Origin: Nanobdellota archaeon
Lineage (GTDB): Archaea > Nanobdellota > Nanobdellia > Parvarchaeales > Parvarchaeaceae
NCBI GenBank assembly: GCA_021818905.1
Contig: JAKASS010000002.1
Coordinates: 24,142 to 88,141 of the forward strand
Direction: 5' to 3'
DNA: 64,000 nt
Part shown: one piece after another, positions 4,280-62,604 of the stretch
Position numbering within the stretch: the first letter of the stretch is position 1
Layout: the number at the start of each line of letters is the position of its first letter
Program-made: the position numbers and the translations under genes
The notes under the pieces: generated by a model
Database searches by the model: none
What the model was told of the DNA's origin: nothing
The model's input: the letters and a program-made list of their open reading frames with translations, nothing else

Positions 4280-5647
4280 TCATTTTATATTCAGTATAAG
4301 AGAATTTGATTTCTTTTTGTAAGATTTACCTTCCGCCGAATTAAACGAGCAGCTTGCCGAGCGTAGACCTATGCTTCCAACTATTCCTAACTTACTCTTT
4401 ATTTCGTACATAAGTAAAATTTCGTCGTTTGGCTGCAGCTCTACCTCTCTCCAAGTTATACTCAAGCCATTATCTGACCTCCCTATCTTTCCTTCTTTTG
4501 GCCCTATAGATGAAACTTTTAATGCGTGGGCGGGAACATAGTCTACGATAACTAAGTCTTTAAGTACTTTCTTCGAAACATTTCTTATTTTTAATGCGAT
4601 TTTCACATCGACAAAGCCGCCTACCACTTTATGCTCTACTACTTCTTTAGAGATTACAAGTTTACGATTAAGATAAAAGAATGTAAATATAGCTATTATG
4701 ATTATTGCAACTATAAGATAAATTGGCAGATAAGAAACGGTATAAGAAATCGTAACTGACTGGCCGGGGGCAAGGGAAGCAACCGTCGCTGTTTTAGATA
4801 TTATGAATGCCGAGTTAAACTGGCTTACCGAAAGAGAAAAATTACCAGCTGAAAGATTCTCGTTGCCTGTATTTACTACAGTTACAGAATAAGTGCCGCC
4901 AAATAAATTAATATTATTAGAAGAAACTTTTGAAAGCGAAACATACGGCAAAATTTCGATGACGGTATAATTTACCGCTTTTTCTTCCGTTCCATAGTTT
5001 GTTGAAATAGACAGATTGTAAGTTCCTGGGGCGAGATTCCTGTTTAATGGCAAAGAAAAGGAAAATTGATCTAACCCGAGCGTAGACAAAGTTACTTGGC
5101 TTGAAGAGGCGACAACTTTCTGATTATTAGAATTATTAAGTTCATAAGATAATGTAACATTTGCACCCTGCCCTAAAATATTTTGTAGACTTACATTGAA
5201 ATTTAATGGTTCCACAGGTTTCATTGATGCTGGCGCAGAAATCTTATAGATAAGATCGTATACCGGAACAATGGGCGCAAAGAAATTAAAGTAACTTGAT
5301 ACATTGTTTTCAGTGTAATATACATTAATTGTAACTGGATAAGAGGATATATCGCCATTTGGCACAAATGAAAACAGAACATTCTCCGATTCTCCCGAAG
5401 CTAGGACAAAAGATAGTGGTTTTATACCGATGCTTAAAAAATAGCCTTCATTTTCTATTTTCGTAAGCCCAACATCGAATGAAATGTTTTCAGAATAAGT
5501 TTGATTATTATAAAAACCTATATTAAAAAATGAGTTTGAGTTACTCGGGATGGTAATCGGTTGACCTGACACAGGCTGTAATGCACTTACTGTACCTACC
5601 GAGAGTAATAACAATGAAAGGAATATCGCAATTCCAATTTTTCTCAT
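4280..5647 (-). CDS. type I membrane surface protein, probably N-glycosylated
   Basis: 455 aa; N-terminal signal peptide (MRKIGIAIFLSLLLLSVGTVSA), S/T/N-rich ectodomain with many N-x-S/T sequons, single C-terminal TM (LIVAIIIIAIFTFFYL) plus ~140 aa cytoplasmic tail. Confidence 0.5.
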   Translation of the reverse strand: MRKIGIAIFLSLLLLSVGTVSALQPVSGQPITIPSNSNSFFNIGFYNNQTYSENISFDVGLTKIENEGYFLSIGIKPLSFVLASGESENVLFSFVPNGDISSYPVTINVYYTENNVSSYFNFFAPIVPVYDLIYKISAPASMKPVEPLNFNVSLQNILGQGANVTLSYELNNSNNQKVVASSSQVTLSTLGLDQFSFSLPLNRNLAPGTYNLSISTNYGTEEKAVNYTVIEILPYVSLSKVSSNNINLFGGTYSVTVVNTGNENLSAGNFSLSVSQFNSAFIISKTATVASLAPGQSVTISYTVSYLPIYLIVAIIIIAIFTFFYLNRKLVISKEVVEHKVVGGFVDVKIALKIRNVSKKVLKDLVIVDYVPAHALKVSSIGPKEGKIGRSDNGLSITWREVELQPNDEILLMYEIKSKLGIVGSIGLRSASCSFNSAEGKSYKKKSNSLILNIK

Positions 5648-45862: not shown

Positions 45863-46805
45863 GGGCACTGTTACCAAATACGGTTGGTGAATGTTAATTA
45901 CATCGGCTGCCATCTTTATTTAAGGTAAAAAATGGAAAACCGATGTAATTATTGTAAAAGTAGCAGCGCAGCCTTAAATGGTTTTAGAAAGACGAAAAAC
46001 AGGGGAAACATACAGCGATACCGCTGTATGTCCTGCGGTAAGACGTTCGTGGAAAACGGCGGTTTCAGGTGGAAACACCATGCGAAACGCACCATAATCG
46101 GCAGTATTCACCTCCATCTGATAGGATCGTCGCTTAGGGACGCTGCAAAGTTCCTTTCCGTGTCCGTTGATTCCGTATTCAGGTGGTTTCTTGAATACGG
46201 AAAAATGATCATAGGATACGTAAAGGACATGAAGCCTTTCAGGACGGAAAGGCTTCACATGGACGAGATGTCCGTAAAGACGCGTGGGAAGTCCTTTTAC
46301 GTATGGGCTTCCATCTGCAGGGAGAGCAGGTTTGCCACGGCTTTTCTCGCTTCCGACAGGACGAAGAAGAACGCCAGACTGCTGATGAAGGAGTCCCCGC
46401 CAGCCATGAACATCACCACGGACGGAGCCTTCGGATACGGATCCGTAATAAAAGACTTAAAAGGCTTGGGGTATCACCACGACCACTATCACCGCTGCGC
46501 TTCCTTCGAGGACAAGAAGGACAATAATCTCATAGAAAGATGGAATAATTCCTATCGTGCTAATACCCACGAGCTTCGCGGGTTCAAGGAGCTTTACACT
46601 GGAGACTTGTTCGTAAGATTGTGGACGTTCTACTATGACTTCATAAGGCCGCATTCTTCCCTCGGCAGGACCCCTGCTGAAGAAGCGGGACTTGTAAGGT
46701 ATCACGAAGGCGATGATTGGTTCGGACGGTGGGAACGATGGGTCGAGAGAGCTTCGCTCTCTTTTTATTTGGCTTATATATCAACCGTATTTAGTAACAG
46801 TGCCC
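45863..46805 (+). mobile_element. IS6-family insertion sequence (~943 bp) with 26-bp imperfect terminal inverted repeats
   Basis: Left IR GGGCACTGTTACCAAATACGGTTGGT (45863..45888) vs reverse complement of right IR (46780..46805) GGGCACTGTTACTAAATACGGTTGAT, 24/26 identical; IR start GGCACTGTT matches IS26/IS6-family IR consensus GGCACTGTTGCAAA; element is markedly GC-richer than flanks. Confidence 0.7.
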
Positions 46806-46981
46806 AGGAATCTGCCAAATCCTTCCTTCGAGGTCTCCGTGTATCCCTCTTTTATTATTTTTCCATGTTCTTCCACCACTACATAGCTCTGCCTCTTTCC
46901 CGTGTTTATCGACACTACCCTCCCTGCCGTCTTTTCCGTTTCTCCCATGTTCCCTTCGCCTCCGAAAGCGACGACCTTTGA
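45932..46981 (+). CDS. tnp: IS6-family DDE transposase with N-terminal zinc ribbon (frame reads through right IR)
   Basis: N-terminal CNYC...CMSC ribbon; DDE region HMDEM ... ITTDGAFGY ... NNLIERWN collinear with IS26 Tnp (DETYIK ... IVTDKA ... NNLIEQDH); no stop codon before right IR so ORF continues 59 codons into flanking DNA. Confidence 0.7.
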   Translation: MENRCNYCKSSSAALNGFRKTKNRGNIQRYRCMSCGKTFVENGGFRWKHHAKRTIIGSIHLHLIGSSLRDAAKFLSVSVDSVFRWFLEYGKMIIGYVKDMKPFRTERLHMDEMSVKTRGKSFYVWASICRESRFATAFLASDRTKKNARLLMKESPPAMNITTDGAFGYGSVIKDLKGLGYHHDHYHRCASFEDKKDNNLIERWNNSYRANTHELRGFKELYTGDLFVRLWTFYYDFIRPHSSLGRTPAEEAGLVRYHEGDDWFGRWERWVERASLSFYLAYISTVFSNSAQESAKSFLRGLRVSLFYYFSMFFHHYIALPLSRVYRHYPPCRLFRFSHVPFASESDDL

Positions 46982-48711: not shown

Positions 48712-48909
48712 ATGACAATGCAGAAGTGGGAGAGAGTGATAGAACTAAGCATAATCGGTGTCGTTCTTTTTATAGGACTAGTTTCTATTTTATACAGCTG
48801 GATAGACGGCGCCATCGGTGGAATTGTAAATGTATATGTGCTCACTGCAATCGCCGCCGTATTATCATTCCTTATAGTTTACGCGATAAAGGTATTTGAC
48901 AAAGGCTAG
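48712..48909 (+). CDS. small two-TM membrane protein, hypothetical
   Basis: 65 aa ORF with two hydrophobic helices. Confidence 0.3.
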   Translation: MTMQKWERVIELSIIGVVLFIGLVSILYSWIDGAIGGIVNVYVLTAIAAVLSFLIVYAIKVFDKG

Positions 48910-48911
48910 AT

Positions 48912-49241
48912 ATGCGTACCAAAAAAAGGTATCTGCTGGTCGAAATCAGCGGTATTACTTCCGCAGAAGAATTTGAGAAGGCGGTGCGCTCTACATTGAA
49001 TAACCTGGAACCTCTGATTTCCATAAAGGCGAACCTGCGGATAATAAAAGATTGCTTTTCTAGCACACCGGACAGTATTTTAGGTATATTGAGCGTAGAC
49101 AATTCTTACAAAAATCAAGTGATATTCTTATTATCTTTAATTGGTAAGTTTTATAAATCAAACCTGCTTACCTTAAAAAGTAGTGGTAGTCTAAAAAAGA
49201 TAAAATTGGAGGAAACTAGATATGGAACAAATGCCAAATGA
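48912..49241 (+). CDS. rnp2: RNase P protein component 2 (Pop5/Rpp14)-like
   Basis: 109 aa; RYLLVEI start and position immediately upstream of psmA match the first gene of the archaeal exosome/proteasome superoperon. Confidence 0.5.
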   Translation: MRTKKRYLLVEISGITSAEEFEKAVRSTLNNLEPLISIKANLRIIKDCFSSTPDSILGILSVDNSYKNQVIFLLSLIGKFYKSNLLTLKSSGSLKKIKLEETRYGTNAK

Positions 49242-49932
49242 TTTAATGGGTTATGACCGTGCAATCACGCTCTTCAGCCCAGATGGTAGACTTTTACAAG
49301 TAGAATACGCTCGAAAGACTGTCTCTCAGGGTTCTGCTGCATTGGCTTTGGCCGGCAAGGACTCCATTGTTTTCGTGGCCGATAAAAGACTTCCTGAAGT
49401 GGAAAAACTTATAGTTACAGAAAGCATAGAAAAAATATTTAAAATAGACGAATTTGCTGGCGTTGCGATATCAGGTATGATAGCAGATGGCCGCGCGCTT
49501 ATAGAAAAGGCTCAGTTAGAAGCGCAACAGCACCGCGTCACTTACAACGAACAGGCGGATATGTTACTTCTTATAAAAAAGATCAGTTCTGAAATGCAAG
49601 CTTTCACGCAGTACGGTGGCGCAAGACCTTACGGTGTAAGCATGTTGTTCGGAGGGTTAAGAAATGAAAAGCCGGTCCTATTCATGTTAGAACCAAGCGG
49701 GATATTTTTCCAGTACAAGGCAGTGGCCATAGGCGAAGGTTCACAAGCTATAAACAAGAGCTTGGAAGAAGGATATAAGACAGACATGGATACTGATGCA
49801 TTGATAAAGGTCGCTATAAAAGCCATGAAAGTTGGCGGTATAAAACTACATCCCGACAGATTTGAAATAGTCATCATCAATGCTTCTGGTTTTAGGAGAC
49901 TTGGAAAAGAAGAGATATCAGCATACATCTAA
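49222..49932 (+). CDS. psmA: proteasome subunit alpha
   Basis: 236 aa; N-terminal YDRAITLFSPDGRLLQVEYA signature. Confidence 0.9.
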   Translation: MEQMPNDLMGYDRAITLFSPDGRLLQVEYARKTVSQGSAALALAGKDSIVFVADKRLPEVEKLIVTESIEKIFKIDEFAGVAISGMIADGRALIEKAQLEAQQHRVTYNEQADMLLLIKKISSEMQAFTQYGGARPYGVSMLFGGLRNEKPVLFMLEPSGIFFQYKAVAIGEGSQAINKSLEEGYKTDMDTDALIKVAIKAMKVGGIKLHPDRFEIVIINASGFRRLGKEEISAYI

Positions 49933-49949
49933 GCAATCTCATCAAATAC

Positions 49950-50624
49950 ATGGAAGATAGAGTAATAGCAAGACTTCAGATCGAAGACAAAAGATTCGAG
50001 ATTTTTGTCGACTGTGAAAAGGCGATGGCCATAAAAGAAGGCAAAAACGATGATATAACTTCTGCACTTTTAGTCGACAAGATATTCAAGGATATAAAGA
50101 AGGGTGAAGTCGCTGGCAATCTTGACAAGACTTTTGGCACAGAAGATGTAAACAAAGTAGCTCTAGAGATAATAAAAAGAGGGGAAATCCAGATCAGCAG
50201 TGCGTACAGAGAAAAGCAGACTGTGATGCTAAAGAACAGGATAATAGACAACATAGCTTCCATGGCTATAGATTCTATGACAAACTTACCAATACCAAGA
50301 AAAAGGATAGAACTTGCTATGAATGAAGTGCATCATAATTTTGATTTGAATAAACCAGAGAAAGAACAGACAGAAGATGTCCTTATAAAGCTTAAAAAGA
50401 TCTTACCTATAAAACTAGGGGAATTCTCCTACTTGGCTGAGATACCATTGGCCTACGCAAACGACTCAATGTTATCTTTAAAAAGGTTAGCAGACATTAA
50501 AAGTAATACAAGAAATGACAACGGGATAAGTGTTACTTTCTCGGTAAAAGCTGGAAGTGAAGGAGAGCTTTTAAGTAAATTAAAGAGTGTGACGCATGGC
50601 ACAATAATGCTAAGGAGAATATAG
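49950..50624 (+). CDS. sdo1: ribosome maturation protein SBDS/Sdo1 homolog
   Basis: 224 aa; conserved position between psmA and rrp4; FYSH-like N-terminal region. Confidence 0.65.
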   Translation: MEDRVIARLQIEDKRFEIFVDCEKAMAIKEGKNDDITSALLVDKIFKDIKKGEVAGNLDKTFGTEDVNKVALEIIKRGEIQISSAYREKQTVMLKNRIIDNIASMAIDSMTNLPIPRKRIELAMNEVHHNFDLNKPEKEQTEDVLIKLKKILPIKLGEFSYLAEIPLAYANDSMLSLKRLADIKSNTRNDNGISVTFSVKAGSEGELLSKLKSVTHGTIMLRRI

Positions 50625-50629
50625 AAAAT

Positions 50630-51304
50630 ATGGCACAGCTAAAAAATTATGACATTGTTACCCCTGGCGAATTGCTTTCTGAGGAAGGCGATGGCGGAAA
50701 CGGTACTTATGTCGAAAATGGCAAGACATTCTCAAAATACTTTGGAATGCTACAAGTGAATGAACGGGGGGCAAGCGTAACTCCTCTTACCGGAGTATAC
50801 AAGCCAAGAGAAGGCGATGACGTAATAGGGCAAATAGTAGAGGTTAGCAGCAAATATTGGGTGGTAGACATAAACGCGCCATATTACACTAGACTAGATT
50901 CAAGAGATGTTAATTTCAGGGCCGACATAGACGACCTCGCCCGATATATGCAGATGGGTGATTTGATTTTTGCTAGAGTATTTAGAATATACGCGAACCA
51001 CGCAGCCGATGTTTCGATGAGAGGCACAAAATACGCCAAGTTGCCATCAAAGATGATAACAAAGATAGACCCTATGAAACTCCCTAGACTTATAGGCAAG
51101 GAAGGCGCGATGATAAACTTAATAAAAAATGAAACGCATTGCGAAATCGTAATAGGACAGAACGGGATTATATGGGTAGGCGGCGACAAAGAACAAATGA
51201 ACTTAGCTATTTCGGCTATAAATCTAGTCGAAAGCGAATACCACATTCCTAGACTAATGGAAAAAGTAACGGAGATGTTTGAAAATGTACGAAGAAAGAT
51301 TTGA
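50630..51304 (+). CDS. rrp4: exosome complex RNA-binding subunit Rrp4 (S1 + KH)
   Basis: 224 aa; S1 and KH domain pattern, operon position. Confidence 0.8.
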   Translation: MAQLKNYDIVTPGELLSEEGDGGNGTYVENGKTFSKYFGMLQVNERGASVTPLTGVYKPREGDDVIGQIVEVSSKYWVVDINAPYYTRLDSRDVNFRADIDDLARYMQMGDLIFARVFRIYANHAADVSMRGTKYAKLPSKMITKIDPMKLPRLIGKEGAMINLIKNETHCEIVIGQNGIIWVGGDKEQMNLAISAINLVESEYHIPRLMEKVTEMFENVRRKI

Positions 51305-51986
51305 TAAAAGAGCGTTTGACGAATTGCGGCCAATGGAGGCTGAGACAGGCCTGATAGCTAATGCGAATGGCAGTGCTAGATTTAGAATAGGAAACACGGA
51401 AGCTATCGCAGCTGTGTACGGTCCGCAAGAGGTGAAACCGAAGCACTTTGAAAAGGTTGACCGAGGTATTATAGTTTGTAAATATGATATGATGCCATTT
51501 TCTGTCCCAGACAGGGCCAAACCAGGTTTCGATAGAAGAGATATGGAAATAAGCGATGTAATAACAAACGCACTAAGCCGCGCAATATTATTAAAAGAAT
51601 TTCCAAGGTCTATGATAGACGTGCGCGTTTACGTAAGCCAAGCCGACGCTGGTACCAGGTGTGCAAGCTTGACAGCTGCTTCGATGGCATGCGCAGACGC
51701 TGGCCTTCCTATGAGAGACTTAGTTGCTGCGGTTGCAGCTGGAAAAATCGGCGACAGCGTATGTTTAGATTTAACTAAAGAAGAAGAAGATTTCCACGAA
51801 GGCGGTGCAACGGATGTACCTATTGCATTTTTGCCTTCCAAGAACGAGATTGTGCTCTTGCAACTTGATGGTAAAGTAAGCAGGGAAGATCTTAAGAAAA
51901 TAATAGAGATGGGGAAACTCGGTGCGCACAAAATCTATGAGTTAGAGAAGAAGGCACTGAAAAGGAGGTTTTCAAATGAAAGTTAA
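51279..51986 (+). CDS. rrp41: exosome complex exonuclease Rrp41 (RNase PH domain, catalytic)
   Basis: 235 aa; RNase PH domain pattern incl. DGSARFRIGNTEAIAAVYGP. Confidence 0.85.
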   Translation: MKMYEERFDKRAFDELRPMEAETGLIANANGSARFRIGNTEAIAAVYGPQEVKPKHFEKVDRGIIVCKYDMMPFSVPDRAKPGFDRRDMEISDVITNALSRAILLKEFPRSMIDVRVYVSQADAGTRCASLTAASMACADAGLPMRDLVAAVAAGKIGDSVCLDLTKEEEDFHEGGATDVPIAFLPSKNEIVLLQLDGKVSREDLKKIIEMGKLGAHKIYELEKKALKRRFSNES

Positions 51987-53292
51987 GGTTAGAGGTATTT
52001 ATTCGACTGCAATAACAAAGCTTTTGCTAGACTCTGGCTTTGAAATAACCCAGGCTGCGGATGCGATAAAACAAGCGCTTAATCTGTCTGATGACTCTGC
52101 GCCGGATGTAATGATAGAAGATGTTGACACTAAAGAAGGAATCTACGTTTACGGTTCAGACCCTGGCAAGATAGTAGAAATCCTCAAGAAACACCTGAAA
52201 GAAAGCGTATTCTACAAAGAGGACATAGGTAAAATCTACTGTGGTATAATAAAGAATACTGATCAAAAATCTAAATCTATAGTAATCGCTCTTCCAGATG
52301 ATGAAGAAGGCGTACTAGATTTGAAAAACTTCTGGGGCTACGTAAAACCGGGATCTAAGATATTAGTACAATCAAAAGGCACTTATGACGGCAAGATAAT
52401 GCTTTCTACGCAGCTAAGGATATTCGGAGAGAACGTAATAATAATAAAGAATGGCTTCACAAAAATGAGCAGGGGCATACGTTCACACGAAGACAGAGAC
52501 AAATTAGACGAGATAGCTAAAGGAATGGACCTTAAAGACTGGGGGATATTATGGGTACAGGGCGCAGAAAACAGGGAAGAAGATGTACTTAGACGTGAAC
52601 TAGAATCACTTATGGAAAAAGAAAAAGAAATAACTGAAAAGTTCAACTCTTCCACCGAGCCGGCTACATTGTATGAAGGCATAGATAAATATTTCACGCT
52701 CTTCGGAAAAGAGGACAAAGCGAGATTAGACGATATCCGAAAGAAAGTCATGCCTACTATACCAAAGCACCACATGCTGAAATCTGCGGGATATACAATA
52801 CTTACAGATTTCGCTGAGAACCTAATGGACCGCGCTTCTGATTCTGAAATGTCTCAGAAAGTAGCAGAAACTCTGTTAAGATATGGCCCTATAAAGAACA
52901 AGATGTATAGACTTGCATTTACAAGATTAAACGGGACATCCTATAGGGTAGACGGCATACTTGAGGATGTGGTAGTTGAAAACAATGATGTAAAATCCCT
53001 AAGGCTTACGAACAGAAACGATTGGGGAGAAAAAACTTACATAGTCGAAGCTGGCAAGGATTATGTCGTTGTAAAGCGAGGGGATTCCGAGGACAGAATA
53101 TTAACTCTAAAGCCTGAAATATTTCCTAAGTTTGCGAAGATAACTACATTTGATATAACAGCAAAGAAAGAAAATGGGGCGGTCACCGTATCTAACGATA
53201 ACAGGATAGAAAAACTACGGAAGAAGGGCGAGATAAGCCATGAACTCGAAGAGTCGCTTAAAAAGGCACTTTCGGAGATAAGCAGCATATGA
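51976..53292 (+). CDS. fau-1: FAU-1-like ribonuclease (archaeal RNase E/G-like RNA-binding protein)
   Basis: 438 aa; N-terminus VRGIYSTAITKLLLDSGFEI matches FAU-1 family start (RIRGIYATALTKL...); overlaps rrp41 end and rrp42 start. Confidence 0.55.
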   Translation: MKVKVRGIYSTAITKLLLDSGFEITQAADAIKQALNLSDDSAPDVMIEDVDTKEGIYVYGSDPGKIVEILKKHLKESVFYKEDIGKIYCGIIKNTDQKSKSIVIALPDDEEGVLDLKNFWGYVKPGSKILVQSKGTYDGKIMLSTQLRIFGENVIIIKNGFTKMSRGIRSHEDRDKLDEIAKGMDLKDWGILWVQGAENREEDVLRRELESLMEKEKEITEKFNSSTEPATLYEGIDKYFTLFGKEDKARLDDIRKKVMPTIPKHHMLKSAGYTILTDFAENLMDRASDSEMSQKVAETLLRYGPIKNKMYRLAFTRLNGTSYRVDGILEDVVVENNDVKSLRLTNRNDWGEKTYIVEAGKDYVVVKRGDSEDRILTLKPEIFPKFAKITTFDITAKKENGAVTVSNDNRIEKLRKKGEISHELEESLKKALSEISSI

Positions 53293-54050
53293 GCATTGAA
53301 AACTACGATTACATAAGAGAGATGGCCGAGAAATCTATTAGAGCAGATGGCCGCAAAGAAAACGATAGACGTAATTTGGTGATAAAAACAGGAGTTATAA
53401 ATCACTCCGATGGTTCAGCTTATTTAGAGCTGGGTGGCACTAAAGTACTAGCTGGCGTAAAAATACTTCCCGGCGAGCCGTTCCCGGACAGGGCTGACGA
53501 AGGGGGGCTTATAGTAAATTTCGAGGCTTCTGAATTAGCAAGTAACTACCAGTCAGACAGGATAATGTATTCTGTAGAAGTGGGAAGAGTGACAGACCGC
53601 GGCATAAGAGAGTCAAATTTGATTGACATGAAAAAACTCGTTATAGAGGTCGGAAAGAAAGTTCTTTTCGTTTACATAGACATATTCGCTCTAAATAATG
53701 AAGGAAATCTTTTAGATGCTGCCAACATGGCCGCATTAACCGCACTATTAGATGCTAAGTACAAAGTCGAGGGGAGCGAAGAAAAGATACAGCTACCATT
53801 AAACCACGAGAAACTCTCTATAAGCCACACGTTTGCAAAGATAGGAAATACAATATTATACGATCCAAGTCTGCCAGAAGAAAACCTAGCTGACGCTAGG
53901 CTATCTATCGCAGTAAGCGACAAGGTGAATTCCATGCAAAAAGGAAAAGTCGGCTTTTTTACTCCCGAAGAAGTGGACTATTGCGTTGGCAAGGCATTTG
54001 AACTAAAGCATGAGAATAAGACTTTATTAATGCATCATACTAAAAAATAG
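53289..54050 (+). CDS. rrp42: exosome complex subunit Rrp42 (RNase PH-like, non-catalytic)
   Basis: 253 aa RNase PH-like domain, operon position. Confidence 0.8.
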   Translation: MSIENYDYIREMAEKSIRADGRKENDRRNLVIKTGVINHSDGSAYLELGGTKVLAGVKILPGEPFPDRADEGGLIVNFEASELASNYQSDRIMYSVEVGRVTDRGIRESNLIDMKKLVIEVGKKVLFVYIDIFALNNEGNLLDAANMAALTALLDAKYKVEGSEEKIQLPLNHEKLSISHTFAKIGNTILYDPSLPEENLADARLSIAVSDKVNSMQKGKVGFFTPEEVDYCVGKAFELKHENKTLLMHHTKK

Positions 54051-54052
54051 CT

Positions 54053-54226
54053 ATGGAAGAATACAATAAATTTGAGAGAGCCCGGCTTGTGGGCGCCAGG
54101 GCTTTGCAGCTTGCACTTGGAGCACCAGCTCTTGTAAAAGTCAACAAAAAGGAAGATAGGTACATAGACATCGCAAAACGTGAGCTAGAGAAAGGCGTGC
54201 TACCTATAACAGTAAGAAAAAGTTGA
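54053..54226 (+). CDS. rpoK: DNA-directed RNA polymerase subunit K (Rpo6)
   Basis: 57 aa (below the ORF-track cutoff); MEEYNKFERARLVGARALQLALGAPALV...EKGVLPITV matches RpoK/Rpb6 core (FEKARIIGARALQIAMGAP ... GVIPITV). Confidence 0.7.
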   Translation: MEEYNKFERARLVGARALQLALGAPALVKVNKKEDRYIDIAKRELEKGVLPITVRKS

Positions 54227-54244
54227 TTTTAAATCATCCCTAAA

Positions 54245-55558
54245 ATGGCATTTGACAGTCTAGCGAACAGGCTTAAAGAAGGCATAAAGAAGTTACTTAA
54301 TTCTACAGGAAATGAAAAAGTCGAAGAAGTAATAACAGAGATACGCAAGGCTTTACTCGAAGGCGACGTAGATCCATCCCTCATAGAGAGATTCATACAA
54401 AAAGTAAGAGACGACATAAAATCCAAGAAAGGCAAAGGTCTACTTACGCGTGAAAGAGTGATAGATGTAATATACAATAACCTTGTCGACGTACTTGGAT
54501 CTACAGAAACAAAAATAGACGTTAACACCGTACCTTACAAGATATTACTGGTAGGTCTTTTCGGTTCCGGAAAAACCACCACTGCTGCAAAACTTGCAAA
54601 TTACTATAAGAAACGCGGCTATAGAGTACTACTTTTAGGTCTAGACACCTTCAGACCGGCTGCTTTCGAGCAGCTTACACAACTAAGCAAGCAAATAAAC
54701 GTAAAAATAGCGAGTGCCGGGAAAAACCCAGTAGATATAATAAAAGCCAACGTCGCTTCTTTCAAGAACTATGATATAATAATAGGCGACAGCGCCGGTA
54801 GAGACGCTTTGGACGAGAATCTTGTGAAAGAAATAAAAGGCGTGAACGAAGCCTTCAAACCGAACAATGTTACGCTAGTTATACCTGCCGATCTCGGACA
54901 GAACGCAAGCGTGCAGGTAAAGGCATTTCACGAACTGCTCGGGATAAACAGCATAATCTTAACAAAGACGGACGGTACGGCTAATGGCGGCGGCGCGCTT
55001 ACCGCGGCTTATATCAGCGGTGCAAAGGTTGTATTCATCGGGACTGGAGAGAAAATAAACGAACTAGAAGAATTTGATCCAAAGAAGTTCGTATCTAAAT
55101 TGCTTGGCCTTGAAGGGTTAGAATCATTGTTAAAGAAGGCTGAAGAAGAAAATATACAAGTAAATGAAGAAAGCGTAAAGAAGGTAATAAAAGGTGAATT
55201 TAATCTAATGGATATTTATGACCAATATGCTAGCACAAAGAAGCTGGGACCAATGGATAAACTTGCTAGCCTTATACCCGGTATGCCGACTTCTGGCAAT
55301 ACCAAAGAATTGCTAGAAAAACAAGGCGAGAACATAGGCAAGTTCACTACGATAATGGATTCTATGACAAAACAGGAGCTTGAAGAACCAAATACGATAA
55401 ACTCTGCAAGGATAAAAAGGATAGCAAATGGCAGCGGACAGACCGAAGAACTAGTAAGAGAGCTTCTAGACCAGTATAAGAAGATGAAGACTGTAATGAA
55501 AATGTCAAATAATAAACAGATTTCTGGCCTTATGAGAAGATTTGGTGTAAAGTTATGA
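54245..55558 (+). CDS. srp54: signal recognition particle protein SRP54
   Basis: 437 aa; NG-domain GTPase motifs LLVGLFGSGKTTT, DTFRPAA, TKTDG; Met-rich M-domain. Confidence 0.9.
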   Translation: MAFDSLANRLKEGIKKLLNSTGNEKVEEVITEIRKALLEGDVDPSLIERFIQKVRDDIKSKKGKGLLTRERVIDVIYNNLVDVLGSTETKIDVNTVPYKILLVGLFGSGKTTTAAKLANYYKKRGYRVLLLGLDTFRPAAFEQLTQLSKQINVKIASAGKNPVDIIKANVASFKNYDIIIGDSAGRDALDENLVKEIKGVNEAFKPNNVTLVIPADLGQNASVQVKAFHELLGINSIILTKTDGTANGGGALTAAYISGAKVVFIGTGEKINELEEFDPKKFVSKLLGLEGLESLLKKAEEENIQVNEESVKKVIKGEFNLMDIYDQYASTKKLGPMDKLASLIPGMPTSGNTKELLEKQGENIGKFTTIMDSMTKQELEEPNTINSARIKRIANGSGQTEELVRELLDQYKKMKTVMKMSNNKQISGLMRRFGVKL

Positions 55559-55707
55559 AATGCTCAATATGCGAAAAAGAGATAGAAACTACCTTTTTAG
55601 GGAAAATAAAAGGCAATTACGTAAAGGTTGGTGGCAAATTGCACCCCGTCTGTAACGTTTGTTTCAACACGAATAGAGAAGACATAAAAACTAAAATTAA
55701 TAAATGA
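55555..55707 (+). CDS. small zinc-ribbon protein, hypothetical
   Basis: 50 aa, CxxC...CxxC (C4,C7,C33,C36); ATGA overlap with srp54 stop suggests translational coupling. Confidence 0.3.
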   Translation: MKCSICEKEIETTFLGKIKGNYVKVGGKLHPVCNVCFNTNREDIKTKINK

Positions 55708-55729
55708 TGGCCAACTTAGATTCTTAATT

Positions 55730-55804
55730 GGGCTCGTAGCTTAACTTGGACAGAGCAGCAGACTTCTAATCTGCGGGTTGGGGGTTCAAATCCCTTCGAG
55801 CCCA
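55730..55804 (+). tRNA. tRNA-Arg (anticodon TCT)
   Basis: 75 nt: acceptor GGGCTCG/CGAGCCC, anticodon stem GCAGA/TCTGC with loop CTTCTAA, T-loop TTCAAAT, discriminator A. Confidence 0.8.
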
Positions 55805-55926
55805 ATTATCAGTACATTGCCATGTAAATTTTGGCAAATCTGCCTCGCAGAATGCTTGCCATAGCTTACCAGTTGCGTTTTCTGAAAATGGGTACCCCTT
55901 AGAACCCGCCCAAGATTTAACTCATT

Positions 55927-56367
55927 TTGGCAAATCACCAAAAGATGTTTTTAACTGTTCTGCCAACAAATGGTATGAACAGAAAATATTCTATAGAGTT
56001 AAAAGAGCAGGCGATAAAACTTGCGGAAAGCGGCAAAACTAAGAGGGAAATAGCCAACACCCTGGATATTTCATATTATACAATCCATAAGATGGTTTAT
56101 GGCCATTGCGTTTCCCGAAAACACTCTCAAGATGTAAAAAACAAGGCAAGGGAACTTATAGAGAAAGGCGTATCAAAAGGTCGTGTAGCTTACGAACTAG
56201 GCATCCCTTTAGGCACGCTGGCGCACTGGGACATTCCGAGTCCAAACCCGCCGAAAAGCTACGGTAAAGAAATCAAGGACAAAGCAGCGCAGATGGTTCT
56301 GTCTGGAATGTCGATATCGGAAACGGCTAAACAATTAGGTACGCTTGTGCATAAGTCCCTTAAATAA
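55927..56367 (+). pseudogene. transposase N-terminal HTH fragment (IS630/IS3-OrfA-like), truncated
   Basis: 146 aa with two helix-turn-helix segments (KTKREIANTLDISYYTIHKMV; SISETAKQLG) and no catalytic domain; located just 3' of tRNA-Arg. Confidence 0.45.
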
Positions 56368-56412
56368 GCCTAAGTCTGTCCGATTCGTTCAGATCTTCTC
56401 TCTGCTGGCGCT

Positions 56413-56652
56413 TCAGCCGATCAGTCTATTGTAAAGCATCACCTTCAGCTTGATCTCGTTCTGCACGGACTTCCATCTTCGGGAGCATACGTGCTCCCCG
56501 AACCTCCGCTTAAAGGCGGAGAAGAAGGATTCTACCAGCCATCTTTTCCCGTATCCGACCTTTTCCTTCCATTTCTTCTGGTAGTAACGCATCACTTCAC
56601 GTTCATTGAATAGTACGGTGCCATCGGTAACGGGAGGATCATACCAATTAAA
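56413..56652 (-). pseudogene. IS5-like transposase C-terminal fragment
   Basis: Open frame FNWYDPPVTDGTVLFNEREVMRYYQKKWKEKVGYGKRWLVESFFSAFKRRFGEHVCSRR... carries the conserved IS5-family C-terminal RW.VE..F...KR.FG motif; GC-richer than flanks; begins directly after the stop of the upstream gene. Confidence 0.5.
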
Positions 56653-57942
56653 TTACGAAGATAACTCTGACTTTTTCGGACTGCTCTGACTGCTGCTTAC
56701 ATAACCATAATTAGGTGTTCCTGTCGTAACACTAACATTTGCAAAACTATTTGTTAAAATAGAAGTCTGCAAGTTATCTGAAGATTCTGCTGTATCCTCG
56801 CCGAAATTATAATATGATGGAAAATAGGACAGGCCGTTAATAGCATTGTTATAATATAACAAACTAAGATTTGCATTCAATGACTCAAAATAAGTAGAAG
56901 CCCCATTTCCTGGCCCCCCAAATACGAACTCTGTATCGTAAGGTATAAAAGATGGTGCAACATAGTAAGGAGTTACTATTATAGATATATTTGTCGCGTT
57001 TATGTTTAGGCTAACATTATCATAAAAATGCGGCTTGTAAGAAACCTTTCCATCCGTGACTGTAAAACCCTGCGAATAGCCAAAAGAAATCATTGAGTGC
57101 CCGTCAACAATATAGGTCTTTATTAGCAGCGTAATATTCATAGGTAAGTTAGTGCTAATTCTATTGCTGGCAGCATAAGCGTATACATTCTGTGTCGCTC
57201 CGTTTGCATTGGTATATACAAGGATTTCGCCGTTTCCGCTTATCGAAGAAGAACTGATATTAGCATCCAAAGCGGAGGAGTTCCAAATGTTGTCATCGAG
57301 ATAATAGTAGCCTGCCGACGTATCAAACTGTGCAACATCCTGGAGCCAAAAAACCTGGGTTTTATTTCCATCGTATGAGACATTTGCGACCACATTTAGC
57401 TGTAAACCTGCCGTACTCGGCGAAAGACCGCCCGGCAATGTTGCATTGTAAGCCATTATTTTACTTATGCTCGCAATGCCTAAAACTTCGCTTGTTTGGA
57501 TTTGATAAGCAGACAGCTGGCCGGAATTGCTTGTGATGCCATAACTCGCTATGCCAGTAGAGAAAATCGTCCTATTAAATTTATCTGGTACAATAGAATA
57601 TGTAAAATCAGATTCGGCTACTATATTATAAGCGCCCGGATTTAAAAGTACATGTGCCATCCCAGAAGTCACCGGGCCAGAATATACTTGTGTACCGTTG
57701 CTATAGCTTACTTCTAGATTTCCAGAGATTGAACCAGTAAAATGGATATCCAGCGCTCCAACCCACGTTGCATTCACCGAAGCTGTAAACTTTGGACCAG
57801 AAGTAAGAAAGCCAGATGCATAGACAAAAATCATTATAAACGCTATAATGCCTATTATCGCTAGTTTATTCAGACTTGATGACCTAGACTTTTCGTTGCT
57901 TTTACCAAGTATCTCATTTATTTCCTTCTCGTAGCCCTCCAT
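56653..57942 (-). CDS. S/T/N-rich surface protein with N-terminal signal anchor
   Basis: 429 aa; N-terminal TM (LAIIGIIAFIMIFVYASGFL) then low-complexity extracytoplasmic domain with many sequons; no C-terminal anchor. Confidence 0.45.
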   Translation of the reverse strand: MEGYEKEINEILGKSNEKSRSSSLNKLAIIGIIAFIMIFVYASGFLTSGPKFTASVNATWVGALDIHFTGSISGNLEVSYSNGTQVYSGPVTSGMAHVLLNPGAYNIVAESDFTYSIVPDKFNRTIFSTGIASYGITSNSGQLSAYQIQTSEVLGIASISKIMAYNATLPGGLSPSTAGLQLNVVANVSYDGNKTQVFWLQDVAQFDTSAGYYYLDDNIWNSSALDANISSSSISGNGEILVYTNANGATQNVYAYAASNRISTNLPMNITLLIKTYIVDGHSMISFGYSQGFTVTDGKVSYKPHFYDNVSLNINATNISIIVTPYYVAPSFIPYDTEFVFGGPGNGASTYFESLNANLSLLYYNNAINGLSYFPSYYNFGEDTAESSDNLQTSILTNSFANVSVTTGTPNYGYVSSSQSSPKKSELSS

Positions 57943-60423: not shown

Positions 60424-62604
60424 GTGGGCGTGAAAAAATCTTCTAGTCTGGAAACTCTTCTTGTTAAGAGTCCAAAGGTAAAAACTGCGTCGAAAGACGA
60501 CGCTAAATTAAGGCTGGTTTTGATATCCGAACCGGAACTTGCGACTAAGTTGAGCGATTATCAGGCTCTTTATAACGCCGGTCAAGTGATAGAGAAATAC
60601 GACGGCCGAATAGATGCCATAATACTAAACGGGGGGATGGCTCAGGTCCCTAGTAAATACAGCAAGAGGCGCGGGGAGAGATTTGACCTTCTGGAAGATC
60701 GGCTGAAAGAGACTTACGGTGAAAAAATATTCAAAGAAGTCAAAGGCGGCGCTTCCGGAAGCGATTCCATAGACTCCATGCCAGAAGCACTTCGCTTGGC
60801 GAGGGTCCAGATGAGGAATATACATGAACAGGCGAAGAACAAGGGCATACCTATCTATTACATATTCGCAGAGAACGACTACAAGAATGTAAGCGACCTT
60901 ATAACTGTGTTTGACAAGGTAAAAGCATACGTTGATAAGAACCAGGACAAGGAAGAGACGGAAGATGGCTTCCCGGATATGGTAAAGGGTGTTGACCAAA
61001 GCCTTCTCGCGTTCGTACAGAACAGCTACAAAATAAAGGCTTCCCAATGGAAGAACAAGGACAAGGGCGGGATAAAGGACATGGCTTTGAACATGTACAA
61101 ACAGTGGATCGCGTCCATATTCTCCGATAAGGAGAGTGGGGAGGACCAGACGCTTAAAATACTTGATGGACGGGAAGGAAAGGAATCGGCAGACTTAACG
61201 ACCATGAAAAGGTTTGAAAATGACCTAGAAATAAACGGCATCAAGATAAGGGCGATGCACGCGATCAATGGTCTTTACTCCGGAAACAACGAGGCTAAAC
61301 CTACCGAAAGAGGCGGCGTAATGGCGATAGACAACGCAAACAAAGACGCGCTGCACGGGAGATTAGTAGATGTATACATAAGGTCGCACGAATCTGCGAC
61401 GCAATTTACCGCAGTAGATTTCAATTCCAGAGAAAACCCGGTATATTTCATAAACTCGGGCCCTCTACAAAGCCTTGATTCACAGATAAGAAAGCACTCG
61501 AGCTGGAATAAAACTACAAACGCCAAAAGAGCCGACCAAGCCGAAGACAGTGCAATGCTGATATTCTCTATGAGCGCAGATTCTAGAGTCGACCTCCAGC
61601 ATGTCGGACTCAGGGCGCTTAAAGACGGGACCGATATATCCGCCCTTGAAAGAGCCGCTTCTAAAGAATTATACGAGACTGTGCAGATATCCGATGCGCA
61701 TGTAGGCGCGCCGAGCATGACTTCTTCTTACGAACTTATGGAAGCAATACCACTAGAGCTAGCAAAGAGCACGATACCAAAGGAGCACAGGTACCTGTTC
61801 TTCTTGGGAGACATGTTACACGGCGGATCCGACAAAGCATCTTGGACGGATATACTCTGGCCGCAAAGAGGCACTAGAGACGAGCTTCTTAAGAAGCTTA
61901 GGAGCGCGAAGACGGTGGAAGAAAAAGCCAACGTATTGAGAGAGCTTCTTGATGGCGTCGCTACTCCGGACCTGGGAAGACAGGCAAGAGAGGCAGACAA
62001 GGTCCTTATAAGTAAGATAGCAAACTATTTCGATACCGCTTATGTCGTGGACGGAAACCACGTAGAAAAGGCCGCTGGCCACGCAGGTGAAAGCGGTTTC
62101 CTTGGTCCGATACTCGAACACGCCGGCACGAGGGAAGTAAAGTATCCAGACCAGGTTTCATTAAGAAATGAGGACCTTACTTTAGGGCCTTATAATCTAT
62201 TCATGCTGCACAGCCCTGGTTATAGGGGTGGCGTGGATGCCGGCACGGCTTTGGCCTATAAGGTGATAAAAACGGGCAACGACAACGCGCAAATGGTCTT
62301 TGCCGGGGACTGCCACGAAGAACACGCCGTATTTTTCGCAAAGTATAACAATCAGACAGAAAAATGGGACACGTTCCTAGCGATGACTTCCGCGGCTTTA
62401 CAGGATGTTACCAGCTTTGAAAAGAAGATAGTCTCAAAGAACAAGTATACCAGAGGTTTTGAGATGACTTACCTGCCTACAAACCCTGAGATAGGGACAT
62501 CTTACATAAGACACACATTCATACCAGCACAGGCTCTAAGAAAAACTTTGGACAAGAACGGTGGTTCCGAACTGGAAAAGATCGTCAAATTAAGATATTC
62601 TTGA
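60424..62604 (+). CDS. tandem calcineurin-like metallophosphoesterase: degenerate N-terminal MPE-like domain + intact C-terminal MPE domain
   Basis: 726 aa; C-half has canonical MPE motifs ISDAHVG (DxH), FLGDMLHGGSD (GDxxDxG), VDGNHVEK (GNHE), FMLHSP, FAGDCHEEH; N-half has the same motif order with substitutions (LISEPE, ILNGGM, FAENDY, RSHES). Confidence 0.55.
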   Translation: MGVKKSSSLETLLVKSPKVKTASKDDAKLRLVLISEPELATKLSDYQALYNAGQVIEKYDGRIDAIILNGGMAQVPSKYSKRRGERFDLLEDRLKETYGEKIFKEVKGGASGSDSIDSMPEALRLARVQMRNIHEQAKNKGIPIYYIFAENDYKNVSDLITVFDKVKAYVDKNQDKEETEDGFPDMVKGVDQSLLAFVQNSYKIKASQWKNKDKGGIKDMALNMYKQWIASIFSDKESGEDQTLKILDGREGKESADLTTMKRFENDLEINGIKIRAMHAINGLYSGNNEAKPTERGGVMAIDNANKDALHGRLVDVYIRSHESATQFTAVDFNSRENPVYFINSGPLQSLDSQIRKHSSWNKTTNAKRADQAEDSAMLIFSMSADSRVDLQHVGLRALKDGTDISALERAASKELYETVQISDAHVGAPSMTSSYELMEAIPLELAKSTIPKEHRYLFFLGDMLHGGSDKASWTDILWPQRGTRDELLKKLRSAKTVEEKANVLRELLDGVATPDLGRQAREADKVLISKIANYFDTAYVVDGNHVEKAAGHAGESGFLGPILEHAGTREVKYPDQVSLRNEDLTLGPYNLFMLHSPGYRGGVDAGTALAYKVIKTGNDNAQMVFAGDCHEEHAVFFAKYNNQTEKWDTFLAMTSAALQDVTSFEKKIVSKNKYTRGFEMTYLPTNPEIGTSYIRHTFIPAQALRKTLDKNGGSELEKIVKLRYS

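Follow-up and report, generated by a model that had tools for sequence, protein, structure and literature searches.

The closest described arrangement to the genes reported here is the archaeal exosome/proteasome superoperon, which was reportedly defined by Koonin, Wolf and Aravind in 2001, and the closest described protein is FAU-1, a family recently renamed RNase W. The present study concerns a locus in which the two are combined. The window (by which we mean the whole stretch of DNA analysed, 64,000 nucleotides of contig JAKASS010000002.1 from a Nanobdellota archaeon, assembly GCA_021818905.1) carries at positions 48912-55707, on the plus strand, the genes for Pop5, PsmA, SBDS, Rrp4, Rrp41, a 438-amino-acid (438-aa) FAU-1 protein, Rrp42, RpoK and SRP54, followed by a micro-ORF. 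A previous inspection of the DNA without database searches (hereafter, the sequence-only reading) had proposed this order, and both the open reading frames (ORFs) and the profile matches agree with it, all ten ORFs being confirmed at their coordinates and on their strand. The window shares with the archaeal superoperon the Pop5-PsmA-SBDS-Rrp4-Rrp41-Rrp42 core, encoded in one direction with tight junctions, but it differs in three respects: the RNase W gene lies between rrp41 and rrp42, the series from rpoK onward replaces L37ae/RpoP (rrp42 is indeed followed by rpoK, as the sequence-only reading had remarked), and the lineage lacks Csl4 (PMC7414124). Both components belong to known families; what is new is their arrangement and the degeneration of the RNase W that it contains.

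RNase W is the name given to the FAU-1 family by Vayssieres et al. in 2024 (PMC11602121). According to that work, the part of the protein that resembles RNase E/G consists only of an S1 domain and a 5'-sensor, together a module for RNA binding and regulation, and lacks the catalytic domain of RNase E; the RNase activity belongs to the C-terminal DUF402 domain, where H326, K328, R355, D364, T378, Y391, N404, D420, D424 and D437 are the catalytic and ligand residues (PMC11602121). In the isolated DUF402 domain the D424K change abolishes activity and H326A strongly lowers it; a clamp for the 5'-phosphate is formed by R201, T202 and K174, with a contribution of R10 (PMC11602121). In H. volcanii, RNase W contributes to 16S rRNA maturation at a late stage, its proposed substrate being the trailer spacer of the circular pre-16S rRNA after its opening (PMC11602121). 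A homotrimer formed through the DUF402 domain was reported by Kawai et al., as related in a paper that cites them. The description of the 438-aa protein as an "endonuclease-type RNase E/G protein" in the sequence-only reading thus has to be abandoned, because the similarity concerns the non-catalytic S1/5'-sensor modules and the nuclease centre of FAU-1 lies in DUF402.

The 438-aa protein (51976..53292, plus strand) is an RNase W ortholog whose nuclease centre has degenerated, a conclusion for which HMMER, Foldseek, AlphaFold and a table of aligned residues were used. The homology with FAU-1 suggested by the sequence-only reading is confirmed, and the condition that was to refute that reading, a protein unrelated to FAU-1, does not apply: phmmer matches the P. 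furiosus FAU-1 structures 8rza/8wo8 with E = 3e-30 over aa 2-299, and the protein can be aligned over its full length with canonical FAU-1 proteins (~470 aa). Its AlphaFold model, computed from a 32-sequence alignment (pLDDT 91.7, pTM 0.84), retrieves with Foldseek 8wo8/8rza at the top (E = 6e-36), then the Sulfolobus RNase W 8rzf, and next the RNase E S1/5'-sensor structures (4oxp, E = 1e-9), the latter over the S1/5'-sensor part only; the C-terminal barrel matches the DUF402 phosphatases Sa1684, FomD and SC4828 (7d8g, E = 4e-4, TMt 0.62; 5zdm; 3cbt). The protein passes the cut-off of the Pfam family RNase_E_G (PF10150; 35.4 bits versus 25.5), but the match covers only positions 4-95 of the 270 of the profile, and TIGR00757 gives 30.9 bits for a cut-off of 325.95; by these two measures and by the coverage of the Foldseek matches, the RNase E catalytic domain is absent from the 438-aa protein. 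Three regions can be recognised: an N-terminal, S1 and 5'-sensor-like region (aa 1-240, 51976..52695, plus strand), with 34% of positions invariant among 25 Parvarchaeales sequences; a helical bundle (aa 241-305, 52696..52890, plus strand) that carries the His-His pair H265/H266 and has 42% of positions invariant; and a C-terminal, formerly DUF402, beta-barrel plus helices (aa 306-438, 52891..53289, plus strand), recognised with Foldseek, from which the catalytic residues are lost. The same succession of N-terminal region, S1, 5'-sensor, helical bundle and, as far as the model shows, DUF402-fold barrel is found in RNase W (P. furiosus 8rza/8wo8, S. acidocaldarius 8rzf, H. volcanii). PF04167 (DUF402) is detected by Pfam in the canonical proteins but neither in the window protein nor in any of its Parvarchaeales homologs, and BLASTP finds no match between the window C-terminal domain and the P. 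furiosus DUF402 domain. The barrel has, to judge from the model, kept the DUF402 fold and lost its sequence signature.

The extent of the loss appears from a MAFFT alignment of the P. furiosus sequence with the full-length FAU-1 ORFs of 80 genomic loci (P. furiosus numbering, in which an 8rza number is the 8wo8 index minus 3; all 21 reference residues agree). The DUF402 site is nearly invariant in 46 free-standing orthologs, with D420 and D424 kept in all of them; the genes of this kind in the alignment belong to Asgard, Bathyarchaeia, Thermococci, Hadarchaeota, Methanomethylicota and other archaea, and to locus L088. (L088, which has 35% identity, proved to be a free-standing gene beside tmcA.) In the window protein the DUF402 site carries the changes H326F, K328R, N404I, D420T, D424T and D437N, and R355 and D364 are deleted within a gap of ~25 residues around the b5-b6 loop, the protein having 438 aa and not ~470. 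The clamp is altered as well, with R201V, T202Q and K174G (the pairwise HMMER alignment and the MAFFT table agree on this); these three clamp positions are equivalent to R169, T170 and R142 of E. coli RNase E. Compared with RNase W, the window protein is therefore without H326, K328, R355, D364, Y391, N404, D420, D424, D437 and the clamp. It shares with RNase W the equivalents of R12, K170, S172, R173 and R181, whereas R10 is replaced by Lys, and it has the His-His pair (P. furiosus H271/H272, window H265/H266), which is invariant in all sequences aligned; R10, R12 and this pair make up the central regulatory patch of RNase W. Judging from these residues, the 438-aa protein most likely does not cleave RNA. 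The proposal of the sequence-only reading that the block ties an endonuclease-type protein to the exosome thus does not survive: because the nuclease centre and the clamp are gone, the protein that the block brings to the exosome genes would not be an active endonuclease.

The second part of the finding, the position of the gene, was studied by comparing loci with tblastn, using the proteins of the window operon against archaeal loci. FAU-1 comes right after rrp41 in 42 of 42 DPANN-type loci (listed as L001-L040, L053, L087, L089 and L090, and including Rehaiarchaeum, Tiddalikarchaeum and metagenome-assembled genomes (MAGs) labelled Nanoarchaeota or Woesearchaeota), and rrp42 follows wherever the contig continues. 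Since it recurs in all of these loci, which stem from numerous species-level genomes and metagenomes, this gene order is not due to chance. In contrast, no exosome gene was found near FAU-1 in any of 46 loci of other archaea (up to 8 kb of DNA on each side), so that the canonical gene is free-standing where the window gene sits inside the exosome operon. Further downstream the block of the relatives continues with rpoK-(eno)-rps2, and that of Parvarchaeum with rpoK-srp54-zinc ribbon. A neighbour-joining tree built on 298 columns of the N-terminal and helical parts unites the embedded genes in a single clade (bootstrap 99/100), within which the group that has lost the site (Parvarchaeales, L033, L036) is nested (92/100), and the lineages with an intact site (L035, L037, L038, L040 and L089) are basal. 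This nesting argues for one insertion first and inactivation later. The presence of FAU-1 between rrp41 and rrp42 is thus a synapomorphy of the whole clade, with later, repeated loss of the active site.

The repetition is best seen in Candidatus Tiddalikarchaeum anstoanum (L087:6001-7374, GCA_902385255.1), where FAU-1 also lies between rrp41 and rrp42 and its DUF402 domain is still readily recognised (36% identity to P. furiosus over 161 aa, E = 4e-36), with the site changed to H326E, K328R, D364N, Y391F, N404I, D420N, D424A and D437N. Tiddalikarchaeum has lost its site independently of the lineage of the window. In L039 the site is partly degraded (H326R, D420Y, D437Q). That catalytic loss has been repeated and is confined to embedded copies suggests that FAU-1 plays in this position a conserved role which does not need catalysis.

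Three other observations concern the family or its neighbours. In L038, Rrp41 is matched by tblastn upstream of FAU-1 in two segments (244-666 and 680-937, within 244-937), possibly because of a frameshift, an assembly error or a split gene. In two Asgard-type MAGs (L060:170-3371 and L075:2106-5303) a free-standing, intact FAU-1 gene lies directly downstream of psmA and psmB on the same strand, which is a second and separate association of FAU-1 with proteasome genes. Finally, DUF402 (PF04167) is the only domain of the proteins P0089-P0123 (~320 aa), a large set that spans the C-terminal 42-67% of FAU-1; one member is labelled Aenigmarchaeota and another Aerophobetes (bacterial), and the nuclease domain of RNase W may have stand-alone relatives in them.

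The degenerate protein is under selection. Against the closest relative, L007 (91% aa identity), the ratio dN/dS (omega) is 0.029 for the N-terminal region, 0.039 for the helical one and 0.026 for the C-terminal one, with dS near saturation in this comparison and dN/dS unusable beyond L007, where dS is saturated. The frame is intact, with 437-438 aa in most Parvarchaeales loci, exactly 438 codons in all sequences of the Parvarchaeum type, and 413-422 aa in those of the Rehaiarchaeum type. The C-terminal barrel has nevertheless diverged more than the rest: its identity within the clade is 0.58 versus 0.74 for the rest (in canonical groups the ratio is ~1), the C-terminal domain evolving about twice as fast as the N-terminal part, and the identity of Parvarchaeales to their site-intact DPANN relatives is 0.17 for the barrel versus 0.41 for the N-terminal part. 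The barrel went through a burst of divergence on the Parvarchaeales stem. Of the 133 positions of the C-terminal domain only 15 do not vary within the clade; E381 is the sole acidic residue among them, and none of them is a His.

The close homologs of the 438-aa protein share 56-100% identity with it, almost all have a length of 437-438 aa, and they carry the annotation Candidatus Parvarchaeota, Parvarchaeum (ARMAN-4/5) or Acidifodinimicrobium; an identical copy (100%) is found on a contig of GCA_027328365.1. The comparison with Thermoplasmata implied by the sequence-only reading was thus misplaced, as the closest homologs and this contig are Parvarchaeota-type (ARMAN-type DPANN, a group of ultra-small archaea); in the NCBI taxonomy, Parvarchaeum belongs to the DPANN kingdom Nanobdellati.

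The gene is tightly joined to both of its neighbours. Its ATG (51976) lies within the final codons of rrp41 (51279..51986, plus strand), with an overlap of 11 nt and a GGAGG 7 nt before the ATG, and an ATGA is common to its stop and the start of rrp42 (53289..54050, plus strand), a 4-nt overlap at 53289. Across related loci FAU-1 overlaps or abuts rrp41 in 35 of 36 cases, and the ATGA overlap with rrp42 is present in 30 of 36. As these start and stop overlaps have been kept, FAU-1 is presumably made together with the ring subunits. The two neighbours are well identified: Rrp41, the catalytic ring subunit, by TIGR02065 (E = 7e-82) and by the P. abyssi Rrp41 structure 2pnz (E = 3e-69), and the ring subunit Rrp42 by NF003282 (E = 1e-61), with RNase_PH and RNase_PH_C domains. 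For Rrp41 we consider the ATG at 51285 (233 aa, as in the gene call of L090) a more likely start than the TTG at 51279. The motifs DRR, DAGTR and D-V-P of the window Rrp41 can be aligned with those of P. abyssi Rrp41 (2pnz), and the work of Lorentzen and Conti reportedly assigns them roles in phosphate binding and catalysis. With these motifs intact, the exosome itself is presumably active.

This exosome belongs to a type already singled out by Dombrowski et al. in 2020: Undinarchaeota and Cluster 2 DPANN (including Parvarchaeota) have neither Csl4 nor a protein with a Csl4 domain, and have kept Rrp4, Rrp41 and Rrp42 (PMC7414124). These authors called the "Rrp4-exosome" distinctive and implying "a structural or functional difference", noted that Csl4 is the docking partner of DnaG, and mentioned neither FAU-1 nor RNase E (PMC7414124). 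The absence of Csl4 from the block, pointed out by the sequence-only reading, is therefore true without being particular to this block, since it is a published trait of Cluster 2 DPANN; Csl4, L37ae and RpoP were not found among the ~50 window ORFs scanned.

The interpretation that we favour, and that taken as a whole we consider slightly more probable than not, is that the 438-aa protein, made along with a Csl4-less exosome, serves it as an RNA-binding partner devoid of catalysis; we infer from its residues and its gene context both that it has ceased to cleave RNA and that it binds RNA and cooperates functionally or physically with the exosome. A single transfer, in an ancestor of a DPANN clade comprising Parvarchaeales, Rehaiarchaeum, Tiddalikarchaeum and related MAGs named "Nanoarchaeota" or "Woesearchaeota", would have brought FAU-1 to its place between rrp41 and rrp42 in the exosome core operon. 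Later, in the lineage of the window, the DUF402 nuclease centre and the 5'-monophosphate clamp were lost, while the overall fold, the S1/basic RNA-binding surface and the central Arg/His-His patch have stayed under strong purifying selection. The 438-aa protein would then capture substrates, probably pre-rRNA spacers and other 3' ends, or present them to Rrp4-Rrp41-Rrp42. As for the original recruitment, it is plausible that a cut made by RNase W in the 16S trailer would open an entry for a 3'-5' exonuclease, and one may speculate that a DUF402 homotrimer would fit the three-fold exosome.

Several points weigh against this interpretation. In full-length P. furiosus RNase W, H326A and D424K are near wild-type in vitro (PMC11602121), so it is the isolated domain that supports the attribution of catalysis to them. 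The altered 5'-sensor pocket makes even the mode of RNA binding uncertain. The superoperon also encodes products foreign to the exosome (PsmA, SBDS and Pop5), so that gene position by itself is no proof of a physical association. There are embedded lineages with an intact site, which means that embedding and inactivation are separable, and all embedded genes come from fast-evolving DPANN genomes, in which effects of the lineage and of the operon cannot be told apart.

The main rival is plain co-regulation in a ribosome-biogenesis superoperon, without physical association: FAU-1 would be an rRNA-maturation factor brought into the operon, like SBDS or Pop5, for co-regulation only and acting on pre-16S rRNA independently of the exosome, and the Parvarchaeales version would be an RNA chaperone or binding factor left after rRNA processing was simplified in reduced genomes. 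It has in its favour the part that RNase W plays late in 16S rRNA maturation in H. volcanii, which is not known to have an exosome, the non-exosome genes that the superoperon already holds, and the fact that outside DPANN a free-standing FAU-1 gene is the rule. We nevertheless think it rather unlikely, since the gene lies exactly between the partners of an obligate heterodimer, with start and stop overlaps kept across the clade, which is tighter than co-regulation needs, and since catalytic loss is repeated in embedded copies only. A bolder proposal than the one we favour goes in the other direction: the dead RNase W would be a subunit of the DPANN exosome, a new S1 cap or accessory protein particular to the lineage, to which the recruitment of substrates passed once Csl4, and the DnaG docking site with it, was gone, and which possibly docks as a trimer on the three-fold symmetric Rrp41-Rrp42 ring through the former DUF402 barrel. 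Like Csl4 (with DnaG), the window protein has an S1 domain, and gene context ties it to Rrp41-Rrp42; it shows, however, no homology of sequence or architecture with Csl4 beyond the generic S1 fold, and the published loss of Csl4 (in Undinarchaeota and all Cluster 2 DPANN) is broader than the set of lineages in which the insertion is documented. An enzyme fold selected after catalytic loss, in or near the exosome, has a precedent in the inactive RNase PH-like subunits (yeast/human Exo9), but there the fold and the subunit are different, and the role of subunit is hypothetical for the window protein; we regard this proposal as unlikely in its full form. If it were true, the basal lineages with an intact site would have an archaeal "endo plus exo" exosome, comparable to the bacterial degradosome or to Exo9-Rrp44.

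Could the 438-aa protein instead be an RNase E/G-type endonuclease that is active and that forms, by physical coupling with the 3'-5' exosome, a degradosome-like machine? The Pfam RNase_E_G match above its cut-off and the embedding and overlaps in the operon would fit, and the idea may hold for the basal, site-intact L035, L037, L038, L040 and L089. The pairing of an S1/5'-sensor module with an RNase PH-fold phosphorolytic 3'-5' exonuclease does recall the bacterial RNA degradosome, with its RNase E scaffold and PNPase, but in the window the pairing is by operon only, the protein has neither the RNase E catalytic domain nor a scaffold tail, and it is probably non-catalytic. For the window protein we hold this very unlikely, because the RNase E/G match is limited to the S1/5'-sensor part and because, with H326F, N404I, D420T, D424T and D437N, a deleted b5-b6 loop and no Pfam DUF402 match, the DUF402 centre is gone too. 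It seems no more credible, and we give it a slightly lower probability still, that the C-terminal barrel is still a nuclease or phosphatase that works with a new set of residues. The low omega of the C-terminal domain (0.026) and the DUF402 fold that it appears to have kept could be read in this way, but this domain evolves at about twice the rate of the N-terminal part, its invariant positions are few (15/133), and E381 alone, with no invariant His, offers no plausible metal-binding constellation, which makes a rebuilt metal-dependent site unlikely. The loss of catalytic and 5'-phosphate residues and the deletion in the barrel are, taken by themselves, what one would expect of a functionless remnant, a pseudogene in progress; with an intact frame, a conserved length, omega ~0.03, a confident AlphaFold model and conserved translational coupling, this reading has a negligible probability and we consider it in effect ruled out.

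The other genes of the block call for fewer comments. Pfam and NCBIfam identify PsmA, SBDS, Rrp4, Rrp41, Rrp42, RpoK and SRP54, mostly above curated cut-offs. The gene for the RNase P subunit Pop5/Rpp14 (48912..49241, plus strand, as are the other genes of the block and the tRNA gene below) is only weakly matched (PF01900, 17.2 bits for a cut-off of 23; NF002986, E = 7e-5), but its identity is supported because the syntenic gene of L087 and L089 matches PF01900. It is followed by the proteasome alpha subunit PsmA (49222..49932; Pfam Proteasome, E = 3e-50, and Proteasome_A_N; NF003075, 264 bits, above cut-off), the ribosome assembly factor SBDS (49950..50624; TIGR00291, 153 bits for a cut-off of 126; Pfam SBDS_N and SBDS domain II) and the exosome cap subunit Rrp4 (50630..51304; NF003181, 207 bits for a cut-off of 200), with its N-terminal, S1 and KH domains. 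Beyond rrp42 come the RNA polymerase subunit K, RpoK, a homolog of Rpb6 (54053..54226; NF002208, 81.5 bits for a cut-off of 57), the signal recognition particle protein SRP54 (54245..55558; Pfam SRP54, E = 8e-63, with SRP_SPB and SRP54_N domains) and a 50-aa CxxC...CxxC zinc-ribbon ORF (55555..55707), which overlaps the SRP54 stop by 4 nt and has no Pfam or NCBIfam family. From Pop5 to this last ORF the junction distances are, in order, -20, +17, +5, -26, -11, -4, +2, +18 and -4 nt; the tight overlaps noticed in the sequence-only reading are thus real and argue for co-expression. The zinc-ribbon ORF is found right after SRP54 in at least 17 Parvarchaeales loci, including Rehaiarchaeum, with both cysteine pairs kept, and it does not show the pattern of RpoP. 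A tRNA-Arg(TCT) predicted by ARAGORN at 55729..55805 probably marks the end of the transcription unit.

At the other end, the conserved block is longer than the ten ORFs, correctly delimited in themselves, that the sequence-only reading had assigned to it, since it starts one gene earlier, with a 65-aa ORF (48712..48909) that has two predicted transmembrane (TM) helices and whose stop lies 2 nt before Pop5. The protein is kept at the same place upstream of Pop5 in 27 loci (33-66% identity), and it has no significant Pfam or NCBIfam match. An AT-rich, TATA-like TTAAATA is visible by eye ~25 nt upstream of its ATG. An operon for RNA processing is thus headed by a small membrane protein (the 65-aa ORF, 48712-48909).

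The region of the operon is flanked by insertion sequence (IS) genes, with a DDE transposase of the IS240 type upstream (45932-46981, plus strand) and, downstream (55927-56595), a helix-turn-helix (HTH) transposase (55927-56367) and a fragment. Downstream of the window operon, synteny differs from that of relatives such as L001. In the ARMAN-5-like L002 (9992-13317), SRP54 and the zinc-ribbon ORF are followed by an integrase and by a gene for a primase-polymerase/D5-type helicase, which points to an element integrated at the place that the tRNA-Arg occupies in the window. The window also encodes an acid protease of the thermopsin family (56653-57942, minus strand) that has a TM segment at its N-terminus, which is consistent with an acidophilic host (of the acid mine drainage type). 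Two long window ORFs, 60424-62604 (plus strand, 726 aa) and 4280-5647 (minus strand, 455 aa), have no significant match to a Pfam family.

In the literature searched we found no report of an RNase W/FAU-1 gene inside an exosome operon or of a catalytically degenerate RNase W, although the wider literature may differ; a 2026 preprint on exosome evolution deals with eukaryotes only and contains nothing on an RNase W-exosome gene arrangement. RNase W, defined in 2024, was the first nuclease of ribosome biogenesis found to be specific to archaea, and the Csl4-less exosome was flagged in 2020 without a candidate explanation; the present locus ties RNase W to that exosome. Parvarchaeales, Tiddalikarchaeum and, in part, L039 are natural replicates of the same event, in which the nuclease centre was discarded and the protein kept, and the clade as a whole offers a natural set of catalytic-dead and catalytic-intact orthologs for biochemistry. 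The result leads to a directly testable hypothesis on the rewiring of RNA decay and rRNA processing in reduced archaeal genomes, and it may have a parallel in the way in which the eukaryotic exosome has recruited accessory RNases and pseudo-enzymes.

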